A stretch of DNA of 15,423 nucleotides from a virus (IMGVR_UViG_2698536618_000026:1-15423); one strand, 5' to 3'; positions 7,294 through 14,747 are shown, numbered from the stretch's first letter. The notes: generated by a model from the sequence alone, not told the origin. Made by a program: numbers and translations.

Positions 7294-7566
7294 ATGAAAG
7301 GAAATGATTACGACAAACTTCGTACATTAATTGCGCAAAATGCCATAGCGCGAAATCTTGGTGTGACGCCGCAAGCGGTGAATCAGTGGTTTTCAAAAAA
7401 CACAATTCCTGCTCGTTTTGTTTTACGCGTATGTGAAGTAGTTGCATGGAAGGTCACGCCACATGACTTAAGGCCAGATCTTTATCCTCACCCTGAAGAT
7501 GGAATTCCTGATTCGTTACGCAAAATTTCAAATCCAAGCCTAGCGCACACGGAAGATGGGAAGTGA
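7294..7566 (+). CDS. cro: Cro/YdaS-like HTH regulator
   Basis: 90 aa. LGVTPQAVNQWFSKNTIP HTH and a DLRPDLYP segment resemble YdaS/Cro-type proteins. First gene rightward of the repressor. Confidence 0.65.
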   Translation: MKGNDYDKLRTLIAQNAIARNLGVTPQAVNQWFSKNTIPARFVLRVCEVVAWKVTPHDLRPDLYPHPEDGIPDSLRKISNPSLAHTEDGK

Positions 7567-7636
7567 TGGTGGTGATATGAGCGAAAAAATAACTATTAAA
7601 TACGATGGGACAACCATTTCGATTGCCCCGATCACA

Positions 7637-7930
7637 TTAGCGTTCGCTGAGAAGTTGTTGGTAAGCCTTAAAGGATGCGAACTGCATTCTACCTTCGGCA
7701 TTGATTCCAATGCCTTCGCTTGTACACCAAGCGATGAACTCGGCTGTATCCGCTTCAACTTTAATAACTCGTTGCCCGCCTCTTTCGACACGCTTAATCA
7801 ATTTTTCAGCGTCGTGTTTCCACTCGGTGTAACTGTCGGAGAGCACATCAGCATCAGTAAAAATATTTTTGAGCTCATGATACTGAATCGCATCGCGAAA
7901 CCAGAATAAACCAACGGCCTGAACTTTCAT
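7637..7930 (-). CDS. Hypothetical 97-aa protein encoded opposite to the early-right operon
   Basis: Strong AGGAGG SD 6 nt upstream of the ATG at 7930. Globular-looking composition, whereas the overlapping plus-strand ORF 7556..7909 looks like antisense translation (S/L/F-rich). No family recognised. Confidence 0.55.
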   Translation of the reverse strand: MKVQAVGLFWFRDAIQYHELKNIFTDADVLSDSYTEWKHDAEKLIKRVERGGQRVIKVEADTAEFIAWCTSEGIGINAEGRMQFASFKAYQQLLSER

Positions 7931-8007: not shown

Positions 8008-8757
8008 ATGTGCGGAATCTTAAAAGAATTTATCCGTAAGGAGATGGCAGTGAACACCGCAATTTTTAACGGCAAAGCATCCATGACCAGCCTTGAAATC
8101 GCAGAGCTGGTGGGTAGTCAGCACTCAGATGTTAAACGTAGTATCGAACGCCTGGTTGCTAAAAACATCATCCGGAAACCGCCAATGGCTGTTTCCGAGA
8201 AAATCAATAACTTAGGTTTTAAAGTTCAATATGAGCATTACCTGTTTGAAGGAGAACAAGGTAAACGCGACAGCATCATTGTCGTCGCTCAGCTCTGCCC
8301 TGAATTCACTGCTCGCCTGGTAGATCGCTGGCGCGAACTGGAAGAACAGATCCGTAAGCCAATGAGCGAAATCGAAATGGTTGCCGCGATGGCTCTTGAA
8401 GCTGTTCGTCAGCAGAAACGGATCACTCAGGTGGAAGAAAAAGTCAGCCACGTTGCCGAAACAGTTGAGCAAATCAAAAAGGGCACCATTCGTGAGGGCT
8501 ATGCCGGATATCGCCAACTGAAAGCGAAAACCGGTTTGTCAGATGATAAATGCCGCAATCTGGTGAACGCTTATCAAATTCCTACAGACACCCATGAGTT
8601 CATGACGCCGGACGGATTGTTGTCACGTCGCGCAATTGTTGCCGTGGAACCGTTTATGGCTGCTTTTTATCGGGTTATGGAGGAAGCAGAACCGCGAGGG
8701 ACTCGCTGGTATCACCCGAAAATGGGGTTATTTCAGGTTATTGGTTGGCAGCGGTGA
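8008..8757 (+). CDS. Rha-family phage regulatory protein
   Basis: N-terminal ...NGKASMTSLEIAELVGSQHSDVKRSIERL matches the Rha signature. The true start may be ATG 8044 or GTG 8050 (AAGGAG at 8038-8043) rather than 8008. Confidence 0.7.
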   Translation: MCGILKEFIRKEMAVNTAIFNGKASMTSLEIAELVGSQHSDVKRSIERLVAKNIIRKPPMAVSEKINNLGFKVQYEHYLFEGEQGKRDSIIVVAQLCPEFTARLVDRWRELEEQIRKPMSEIEMVAAMALEAVRQQKRITQVEEKVSHVAETVEQIKKGTIREGYAGYRQLKAKTGLSDDKCRNLVNAYQIPTDTHEFMTPDGLLSRRAIVAVEPFMAAFYRVMEEAEPRGTRWYHPKMGLFQVIGWQR

Positions 8758-8781
8758 AAAAAAGCCGGGAGTAACCCGGCT
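8757..8781 (-). terminator. Rho-independent terminator oriented leftward, abutting the Rha stop codon
   Basis: Minus-strand hairpin GCCGGG-UUACU-CCCGGC followed by 7 U. On the plus strand the hairpin is followed by UCACUC, with no U-tract. Confidence 0.55.
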
Positions 8782-9165
8782 CACTCAACATCAATAACGG
8801 GGAGCTGTTTCGCATAAAACGGCTCCGAAACATCCAAGAACAGTTCTAAAGATATCAGCAGCTATATGATCATTTCAAGACCAAATATTGATTCTGCAAT
8901 TCCGGGACGTTACACTGTTCAGGCACCTTATAAAGCGGGTGCCGGGGGTCGCAGCCCGGAATTGTCAACGGCGATATATGACGCGCCAGCGTCTTTTTTA
9001 TCGTCCGCGCTCACGCACGCCAGAATTATGGTGGGCTGGGCAGGGGAGCCGAAAGGCTCGCCGGTCTCCGTTGACGCCGGTACTGCGAACCCTGTTCAGT
9101 CTGCCACCAGTGAGTTTCGCAGCTCCGGTGGTGGAAGTTTTCCACAGTCAACGGAGGCTGCCATC

Positions 9166-9528
9166 ATGGCTACAGTCCCAACCCACTCATTCCTCAAAAT
9201 TGAGAGCGTCAACGGCAAGGCCGTTATTTTCTCCCTGCATGTTGCCTGCCACTTTAAGCGCATGCACCAGAACATCGTCGACAAAATCGAGTATCTGAAC
9301 TGCTCACGCGAGTTTTTTACCCGTAATTTCATACCGGGTACTTATCACATCTATGGCGATTCCCTGCGTGGTTATTACATCACCCTTGATGGGCTGATGA
9401 TGCTTCAGCTTGGGTTAAGTCTGCGCACAATGCGGTACTACGAGAGCTGCATTGAAGCATTCCATGAGGCTGAAACCAGTCTGAATCACACTGCTTTCCG
9501 CCGTAATCAATGGGAGGTGCGCCCATGA
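9166..9528 (+). CDS. Small Rha-like domain protein (120 aa)
   Basis: GGAGG SD 8 nt upstream of the ATG at 9166. LKIESVNGKAVIFSLHVACHFKRMHQNIVDKIEYL parallels the N-terminus of the 8008..8757 Rha protein; YYITLDGLMMLQLGL fits the Rha core. The track extends this frame to 8866, but that extension has a low-complexity A/G/S/P-rich composition. Confidence 0.5.
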   Translation: MATVPTHSFLKIESVNGKAVIFSLHVACHFKRMHQNIVDKIEYLNCSREFFTRNFIPGTYHIYGDSLRGYYITLDGLMMLQLGLSLRTMRYYESCIEAFHEAETSLNHTAFRRNQWEVRP

Positions 9529-14254: not shown

Positions 14255-14271
14255 TTTTGTGGAGAAAGTTG

Positions 14272-14652
14272 ATGCGTGATATTCAGATGGTTCTTGAACG
14301 CTGGGGGGCATGGGCTGCAAGTGGTAACACCGGGGTGGACTATTCTCCGATCGCTGCCGGATTCAAAGGACTTTTACCATCTGCCACTAAACCACGTCCG
14401 GCCTGCTGCGATGATGACGGACTTATCATTGAAAACTGTCTTGCTCGTCTGAAGCAGAAAAAACCTGAGGAGTATTCGCTTCTCATTGCTCATTATTTGT
14501 TGCGAATATCAAAAAGACAGATAGCCAGGACGAGAAAGAAAAGCGAAAAAGCAATACGAATTGAGATGCAGATAGCCGAAGGGTTTATTGACGGATGTTT
14601 GTCTGTGCTGGGGGTAAGACTGGAGATGGACGGCTGGCTGCTAAAAAAGTAA
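14272..14652 (+). CDS. Q: Late-gene antitermination protein Q (small Q family)
   Basis: MRDIQMVLERWGAWAASGN... N-terminus and overall size match the short Q-antiterminator family of E. coli prophages. GGAG SD 7 nt before the ATG at 14272 (track start TTG 14257). Immediately followed by a terminator, as expected for a Q-pR'-tR' module. Confidence 0.65.
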   Translation: MRDIQMVLERWGAWAASGNTGVDYSPIAAGFKGLLPSATKPRPACCDDDGLIIENCLARLKQKKPEEYSLLIAHYLLRISKRQIARTRKKSEKAIRIEMQIAEGFIDGCLSVLGVRLEMDGWLLKK

Positions 14653-14722
14653 AAAATGATTAGTGCGGTCCGCAAAAAGTATGTCAGTATGTTAAGAGTG
14701 GTTACTTCGCCACACAGCTTAA

Positions 14723-14747
14723 ACCCGCCGCGAGCGGGTTTTTTTAT
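14723..14747 (+). terminator. Rho-independent terminator (tR'-like) downstream of Q
   Basis: Hairpin CCCGC-CGCGA-GCGGG followed by T7 (aaacccgccgcgagcgggttttttt), 70 nt after the Q stop. Confidence 0.65.

Follow-up and report, generated by a model that had tools for sequence, protein, structure and literature searches.

What is the purpose of a transcription terminator that faces leftward, against the direction of rha, and ends exactly at the rha stop codon of a lambdoid prophage? The window analyzed here, a stretch of 15,423 nucleotides (IMGVR_UViG_2698536618_000026), is a lambdoid prophage located next to mlrA and is 100% identical to E. coli O39:NM F8704-2. An initial annotation of this DNA had proposed that the hairpin at the rha stop ends a short leftward RNA, transcribed from a weak promoter and comparable to the OOP RNA of phage lambda, or else that it insulates rha from antisense transcription. 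Judging from the sequences compared below, the terminator and the promoter that faces it are likely best read as a short leftward transcription unit, and we consider it probable that this unit is a real small RNA (sRNA) gene.

Terminator at the rha stop codon and candidate promoter

By inspection, the sequence GCCGGG-AGTAA-CCCGGC forms a hairpin at 8764-8780 that is followed on the minus strand by seven U residues at 8763-8757 (Table 1). The TGA stop codon of rha occupies 8755-8757 and the A7 complement of the U run occupies 8757-8763; the first A of the run is the last base of the stop. On the plus strand, CTCACTCAAC directly follows the hairpin and no T run is present there, so that the hairpin is a canonical intrinsic terminator on the minus strand only. 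A terminator scan of the window ranked it 1st of 29 (8 pairs, 6 of them G-C, a 5-nt loop, and T7), which bears out the claim of a leftward terminator abutting the rha stop. That all neighboring genes lie on the plus strand, as was also stated, is not correct, since RefSeq annotates a 97-aa ORF on the minus strand between the cro-like gene and rha.

The terminator stem was unchanged among the variants, save for one C-to-U change that gives a G.U pair on the minus-strand RNA (locus L106), and the U run measured 6 to 8 residues in every variant (∼135 loci) and never fewer than 6. The loops of the candidate sRNA, for their part, vary freely. Such a terminator is not general to rha genes: 13 distant rha loci in other genera read directly into the next gene, and distant rha genes of this kind, which lack the terminator, were found in Yersinia, Providencia, Proteus, Citrobacter, and other genera. 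A programmed frameshift on A_AAA_AAG and the hairpin was considered and rejected, because the slippery run comes only after the stop codon and varies in length from 6 to 8.

A promoter scan of the window yielded a candidate minus-strand promoter with a score of 9/12 and a TG motif. The weak promoter of the initial annotation was recovered in part: its -35 hexamer, TTGAAA at 8878-8873, was found by the scan, but the register is an 18-nt spacer and TATCTT, not a 17-nt spacer and ATATCT. Alleles B and C (see below) carry TGgTATTTT at the 18-nt spacing, and a variant -35 hexamer, TTGGAA, occurred once among ∼135 loci. Promoter geometry predicts a start at 8845-8841, and the candidate leftward RNA, which should begin near 8842, would then measure ∼82 to 89 nt, in line with the ∼85 nt first predicted.

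As a positive control, a scan of the lambda cII-O region recovered the genuine oop promoter (9/12 with TG) and its terminator. Given the 10 promoters and 29 terminators called over 30.8 kb of strand, we estimate that ∼0.6 to 1 promoter-terminator pair (no more than 150 nt apart) would arise by chance per window under the scan criteria. As such pairs are not rare by motif alone, the significance of this one rests on comparison rather than on motifs.

No ORF of at least 20 aa fits inside the candidate unit. The single minus-strand ORF found there (31 aa, 8738-8833) crosses the terminator, and we rejected the idea of a small peptide encoded by the RNA, as no reading frame has a stop codon within the RNA in any allele. 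No match to the cI-cro control region was found at the candidate sRNA promoter, which suggests that the sRNA is probably made in the lysogen. An operator common to both sites was rejected, the similarity being only 13 nt long and specific to allele A.

Table 1. Features of the window and of the candidate sRNA module, with their identity between alleles
Feature	Position	Strand	Remarks	Identity between alleles
int, xis			left end of the prophage gene order, followed by the leftward early genes	
Promoter match	6341-6368	+	TTTAAA-16-TATAAT	
Promoter match	6407-6379	-	TTGACA-17-TAATAT	
cI-like repressor gene	6471-7166	-	HTH and S24 peptidase	
cro-like gene	7294-7566			
97-aa ORF	7637-7930	-	RefSeq annotated; between the cro-like gene and rha; no Pfam match	
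rha	8050-8757	+	Pfam Phage_pRha	
U7 tail	8757-8763	-	last U opposite the final A of the rha stop codon	
Terminator hairpin	8764-8780	-	6 G-C pairs; loop of 5 nt, 6 nt in alleles B and C	
Terminator stem arms and loop	8764-8769, 8775-8780; loop 8770-8774		GCCGGG/CCCGGC; loop AGTAA; from the sequence	12/12 (both arms)
Single-stranded stretch GUUGAG(U/C)GA	8781-8789	-	just 5' of the terminator	8/9
Internal hairpin	8801-8826	-	GGAGC.GUUUU/GAAAC.GCUCC	sequence differs per allele
5' box GUUCUUGGAU	8832-8841	-	candidate seed	10/10 in A, B, and C
Inferred transcription start zone	8841-8845	-	5-8 nt past the -10; promoter geometry only	
Extended -10, TGaTATCTT	8849-8857	-	TG 8857-8856, hexamer TATCTT 8854-8849; 18 nt after the -35; promoter scan	TG 2/2; hexamer 5/6
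Promoter spacer			18 nt in all alleles	8/15
-35 hexamer, TTGAAA	8873-8878	-	promoter scan; identical in A, B, and C	6/6
isrK/C4 promoter	8888-8893, 8911-8916	+	TTGATT, 17 nt, TACACT; from the sequence	
isrK RNA	8923-8999	+	58.7 bits, above the Rfam gathering threshold; own terminator at 8980-8999	
C4 antisense RNA	9024-9111	+	78.8 bits, above the Rfam gathering threshold	
Replication genes	from 9746			
Q antiterminator gene	14257-14652			
DUF4222 cassette of related loci	455-650 (L158); 455-650 (L159); about 1300-1500 (L100-L105)		in the rha-isrK slot	

Alleles of the module and predicted RNA architecture

The 125-bp module between the rha stop and the isrK promoter was present in 237 of the 5,426 complete E. 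coli genomes (∼4%). The 146 bases around it were chromosomal in every E. coli genome match and always lay between rha and the isrK-side ORF. Carriers of the module include E. coli O111:H- 11128 (NC_013364.1, about 2,433,069-2,433,214), O145:H28 RM12761, and ATCC 43886, as well as phages ASU11 and Stx2_EH2201. Nine phage records carry this 146-base region at 99 to 100% identity, including six Stx2a-converting phages and one Stx2d-converting phage, and the module itself is 100% identical in Stx2a- and Stx2d-converting phages. It was also carried by 92 IMG/VR contigs and 35 metagenome contigs, gut metagenomes included; the terminator pattern and an independent pattern made of the promoter and the 5' box retrieved nearly the same IMG/VR contigs, ∼90 each.

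Across the ∼135 loci from IMG/VR and metagenomes, 27 distinct module sequences fell into three alleles, A (that of the window), B, and C. Alleles A and B are 93 to 100% identical in their flanks but only 55 to 57% identical over 8803-8876. After optimal alignment, 13 of the 14 promoter positions were identical versus 39 of the 70 in the rest of the interior (Fisher P = 0.007), a result for which A versus B/C is the sole independent comparison, since B and C have one promoter in common. Part of the conservation of the terminator and of the -35 hexamer could reflect hitchhiking, as each borders a highly conserved flank, that of rha and that of isrK, respectively. The scan called the promoter and the terminator independently in alleles B and C. 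Within alleles, a tally of the variants placed the substitutions mainly in two loops (∼8 events at ∼12 loop positions versus ∼6 events at ∼79 others). Three stem substitutions give a G.U pair on the minus-strand RNA, and another two, found in allele A, yield G.U on the plus-strand RNA and A.C on the minus-strand RNA; we discarded wobble-compatible stem changes as a means of assigning the strand, three against two being uninformative.

The 5' box GUUCUUGGAU, which sits in a patch only ∼55% identical between alleles, extends to 14 nt (UGUUCUUGGAUGUU) between alleles A and B. In allele C, the UUCUUGG core of the putative seed is present twice in tandem (GUUCUUGGAUUCUUGGG, at loci equivalent to window 8825-8841, e.g., L002). 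The box was altered in one variant alone (v9, 2 loci, GGCU) and was unpaired in all predicted folds. Since allele B tolerates 6 additional nt between the box and its -10, a role of the box at the RNA level fits better than a role as a DNA site. As a separate observation, GGAUGU within the box of alleles A and B resembles the 3' half of the consensus obtained for CsrA by SELEX.

Stable internal hairpins with no sequence relation to one another occupy an equivalent location in the three alleles, with predicted free energies of -11.8, -10.0, and -10.3 kcal/mol and z scores of -3.1, -3.0, and -2.0 for alleles A, B, and C, respectively. A U-rich linker (UUAUUGAUGUUGAG or UUUACUAACGUUGAG) lies 5' of GUUGAGYGA, and the two together appear to resemble an Hfq module. 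From 5' to 3', the predicted RNA consists of a single-stranded box, the internal hairpin, the U-rich linker, and the terminator. Base-pairing (Hfq-type) sRNAs of enterobacteria are usually built in this way; in the candidate, the tail comprises 6 to 8 U residues, the internal hairpin recurs in all alleles, and the box has the conservation and the single-strandedness of a seed. Both strands of the module were predicted to fold well. In a MAFFT alignment of the RNAs, the terminator arm was misregistered because the loop lengths differ.

Neighboring RNA genes and comparison with known systems

To the right of the module lie isrK and C4, which the initial annotation had overlooked. The isrK promoter places its start at 8923, the exact start of the isrK Rfam model, and it stands back-to-back with the candidate sRNA promoter, 9 bp separating the two -35 elements. 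An exact complement of the C4 loop CUCCGUUGAC occurs at 9147-9156 (GTCAACGGAG) and includes the Shine-Dalgarno GGAGG of the ORF that begins at ATG 9166; a partial copy of this complement, GTCAACGG, is found inside isrK at 8964-8971. By their sequences, these elements have an a/b target arrangement like that of P1 immI. RefSeq draws a 220-aa "ash family protein" CDS (8866-9528, plus strand) over the candidate sRNA promoter, isrK, and C4. The Pfam Rha domain of this CDS is confined to its last 120 aa, from ATG 9166, and nonsynonymous differences separate the alleles at its first codons (I-I-S-R-P versus N-V-S-S-L). An overextension of the CDS by 300 nt is probable, and the RefSeq annotation is misleading here.

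With the isrK/C4 module, known from P1/P7 immI and Gifsy-1 isrK-orf45-anrP, the candidate would form a divergent pair of RNA genes ahead of a Rha-domain (antirepressor-like) ORF, but it lies on the opposite strand, is unrelated in sequence, and matches neither Rfam model. Most isrK/C4-bearing phages are devoid of the candidate module. This is the case of Gifsy-1 itself, in which antQ is placed upstream of isrK (PMC4825925).

A small gene of the DUF4222 family lies directly upstream of the isrK promoter in Stx1a phages, phiP27, SfV, 2H10, and Salmonella 118970_sal3, and the identity of phages of this type to the window begins at ATATTGATT (about 8884). PPyecE_EH1910 and strain OkiPb01705 have rha with a different 3' end, then the DUF4222 gene, then isrK. 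Joints near 8720, 8884, and 8946 mark the region as a recombination hot spot. Morons are cassettes with their own promoter and terminator. The 125-bp unit has both, and in relatives the same slot holds the DUF4222 gene or nothing, with rha directly before the next gene, which argues that the unit is an alternative, moron-like cassette.

The 97-aa ORF, with the cro-like gene on one side and rha on the other, appears to occupy a second moron slot. This ORF has its own terminator-like hairpin at 7629-7607 on the minus strand, and a bssS-family gene fills its slot in strain U90. A perfect 14-nt inverted repeat (CAACCATTTCGATT/AATCGAAATGGTTG, 7611-7624 and 8370-8383) is shared by the terminator of the 97-aa ORF and the middle of rha; ∼0.006 such matches are expected by chance in 1.8 kb.

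The lambda OOP RNA is 77 nt long, is transcribed from the promoter pO, and is antisense to the 3' end of cII, of which it covers ∼55 nt of coding sequence. Like OOP, the candidate is a short leftward RNA with its own promoter and intrinsic terminator, placed within the rightward early operon of a lambdoid phage and upstream of the replication genes. For both, the promoter has an extended -10 and a score of 9/12, a strong intrinsic terminator lies at or within the regulatory gene upstream, and the RNA is necessarily antisense to the pR transcript, RNase III-type cleavage and effects of convergent transcription being plausible in either case. The promoter of the candidate is not, however, just upstream of the replication genes, where the initial annotation placed that of oop in lambda: it is back-to-back with the isrK/C4 promoter, and the replication genes begin ∼900 bp further right. 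The right-hand neighbor is thus the isrK/C4 module and not gene O. Furthermore, OOP substantially overlaps the 3' coding end of the upstream regulator, whereas the candidate touches rha only at the stop codon. The candidate also differs in having an invariant 5' box with allele-specific bodies, and the invariance of the box suggests a trans-pairing seed, which the oop analogy does not predict. Homology to oop was rejected: the local alignment score of 16 compares with 13.3 ± 2.2 for shuffled sequences, 80 of the 500 shuffles reached 16, and only the G+C stem and the T run aligned. What survives of the proposed oop-like RNA is the short leftward unit, with the named promoter and terminator kept in three alleles whose interiors are ∼55% identical, but not a sequence similarity to oop; as far as sequences tell, the candidate is like oop in layout and probable logic only and is not a member of the oop family.

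Two other phage systems invite comparison. The sar RNA of P22 is a 68- to 69-nt antisense RNA of the antirepressor operon. Both sar and the candidate are small antisense RNAs of temperate enterobacterial phages that are convergent with transcription toward an antirepressor-type gene (PMC12197685), but sar is located inside the arc-ant leader, over the ant ribosome site, whereas the candidate lies upstream of the isrK promoter and over no ribosome site. The anti-sRNAs AgvB and AsxR are prophage "moron" sRNAs of pathogenic E. coli (Tree et al. 2014, PMC4104026). They share with the candidate the organization of an autonomous promoter-to-terminator sRNA cassette in lambdoid prophages of STEC, an architecture compatible with Hfq binding, and the occurrence of members as related, nonidentical variants. 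In contrast, the anti-sRNAs are 51 to 60 nt long, are located downstream of PR', and vary at their 5' ends, their 3' parts being conserved (PMC4104026), while the 5' box is invariant and the middle varies in the candidate. The sequence of the candidate was absent from the supplements of that study (Tree et al. 2014, PMC4104026).

The candidate is predicted to be a phage-encoded small regulatory RNA, with no match among Rfam families or in literature searches by topic, catalogue, or sequence. An Rfam search of the region, in gathering and permissive E-value modes, gave only subthreshold, terminator-driven matches for the sRNA candidate (sroD, PrrF, and SorX/Y); the best one, sroD, reached 24.5 bits versus a threshold of 50 and covered the terminator part only, and the others scored 17 bits at most. 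Literature searches by topic and by literal sequence, and a search of the EHEC Hfq-CRAC sRNA catalogue and its supplements, returned no description of it.

Proposed function and alternative explanations

We lean toward the view that 8757-8878 is a self-contained leftward gene for a base-pairing sRNA, inserted like a moron to the right of rha, ahead of the isrK/C4 immunity RNAs. Leftward transcription would start near 8842 from a sigma-70 promoter of the extended -10 type, the hairpin and U7 would end the transcript at the rha stop codon, and the resulting sRNA would act by base pairing. Past rha, the first terminator on the plus strand is that of isrK at 8980-8999, so that early rightward transcripts must carry the complement of the sRNA. 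In cis, the sRNA would thus be perfectly complementary to the transcripts leaving rha and could form a duplex directly 3' of the rha stop. This duplex may be a substrate of the RNase III type, whose cleavage would remove the 3' hairpin of the rha message and cut or destabilize that message, and convergent transcription from the sRNA promoter would oppose read-through into isrK-C4. Such a cis mode would follow the logic of lambda oop. In trans, the invariant 5' box could serve as a seed for an additional or alternative target. That the box stayed invariant through three replacements of the body is not easily accounted for by pairing in cis only, and the box looks like a seed. Given a real gene, we hold cis-antisense pairing and trans pairing through the seed to be about equally likely as the main role.

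Searches for targets covered the 64-kb prophage (L001 plus L156). The box had no exact complement elsewhere in this prophage; its best match, with one central mismatch, was at the start of the lysozyme gene and was not judged credible. Duplex predictions were not consistent for pairing of the candidate sRNA with isrK/C4, nor for pairing with the rha translation start in the three alleles. A duplex at the int/xis junction (about 1370-1400) had a low energy but was rich in G.U pairs and involved allele-specific bases, and we treated it as due to chance.

If the terminator simply acted as a one-way insulator, halting stray leftward transcription antisense to rha and leaving the short RNA as a functionless by-product, one would understand its strength, its location exactly at the rha stop, and the outcome of the target searches in the prophage; with the nearest leftward promoter only ∼85 nt away, little else needs terminating. 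Yet, were antisense transcription merely harmful, loss of the promoter would be the easier remedy, and the -35, spacing, TG, and -10 are all kept in three alleles. Insulation also leaves the invariant 5' box and the recurring internal hairpin unexplained, and both the DUF4222-cassette phages and the distant rha genes do without such a terminator. Since the terminator has its own conserved promoter ∼85 nt upstream, insulation as the sole role, which had been offered as the alternative to an antisense RNA, appears unlikely. The recombination joints around the module and the frequency of promoter-terminator pairs under the scan criteria would also accommodate a fossil, that is, a terminator left by a former minus-strand neighbor gene after mosaic recombination, next to a coincidental promoter match. 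This is quite unlikely in our estimation, as all the functional motifs persist in three alleles that diverged long ago and whose remaining sequence has been replaced, and as the U run, a mutable homopolymer, never falls below 6 in ∼135 loci.

The module might also act on the other strand or as DNA. The early transcript must cross the region, with no plus-strand terminator before 8980, and the plus strand folds better still (-28.5 kcal/mol, z score of -5.9), so its hairpins could be a 3' stabilizer of processed rha mRNA or a site for RNase III or another protein, the minus-strand features being incidental. The two allele-A stem substitutions that are wobble compatible on the plus strand only fit this idea, but three others are compatible on the minus strand only. 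A plus-strand element would moreover account neither for the A6-8 run 5' of the hairpin nor for the conserved TTGAAA-18-TGnTATnTT on the other strand, and related phages manage without it; we give it little credence. Still more improbable is control at the DNA level, in which the islands at 8832-8841, 8849-8857, and 8873-8878 would be protein sites or an UP-like element for the isrK promoter. Relative to the isrK start (8923), the islands lie at about -45 to -90, with the -35 island only 9 bp from the isrK -35, which speaks for this view, but they fit the sigma-70 consensus with the correct 18-nt spacing and TG, and a DNA site would lose its register through the 6-nt indel found between the "-10" and the box. 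Most isrK promoters of other phages work with wholly different upstream DNA, and the terminator would be left unexplained.

Returning to the base-pairing sRNA, one may ask why its alleles have a promoter, 5' box, and terminator in common and bodies that are replaced. In what we regard as a long shot, alleles A, B, and C would be specificity types of an RNA-based, type-specific control, a second antisense determinant of immunity or exclusion beside the C4 RNA. The constitutive sRNA of a resident prophage would pair only with a matching rha-isrK junction, be it its own or that of the early transcript of a superinfecting phage, by analogy with the incompatibility types of plasmid antisense RNAs and with P1/P7 c4 heteroimmunity.

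If it is transcribed, the candidate would add a regulatory RNA, as yet unannotated, to the region that controls lysis versus lysogeny in a widespread group of E. coli prophages, including Stx2a- and Stx2d-converting phages, and would be paired divergently with the isrK/C4 RNAs, by which an antirepressor-like gene is gated. It could then influence prophage induction and hence toxin release, or act on host genes through the invariant seed.

Two further sites in the window drew our attention. The 120 bp between the cI-like gene and the next leftward genes (6341-6459) contain the two best promoter matches of the window, in opposite directions (Table 1), and a strong minus-strand terminator at 6459-6443 lies just past the stop of the cI-like gene. 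At the other end, a strong plus-strand terminator at 14721-14741 (AAACCCGCCGCGAGCGGGTTT followed by a T run) is found ∼70 nt after the Q antiterminator gene; it is likely a tR'-type site and, by analogy with Stx phages, could give rise to a short PR' RNA.
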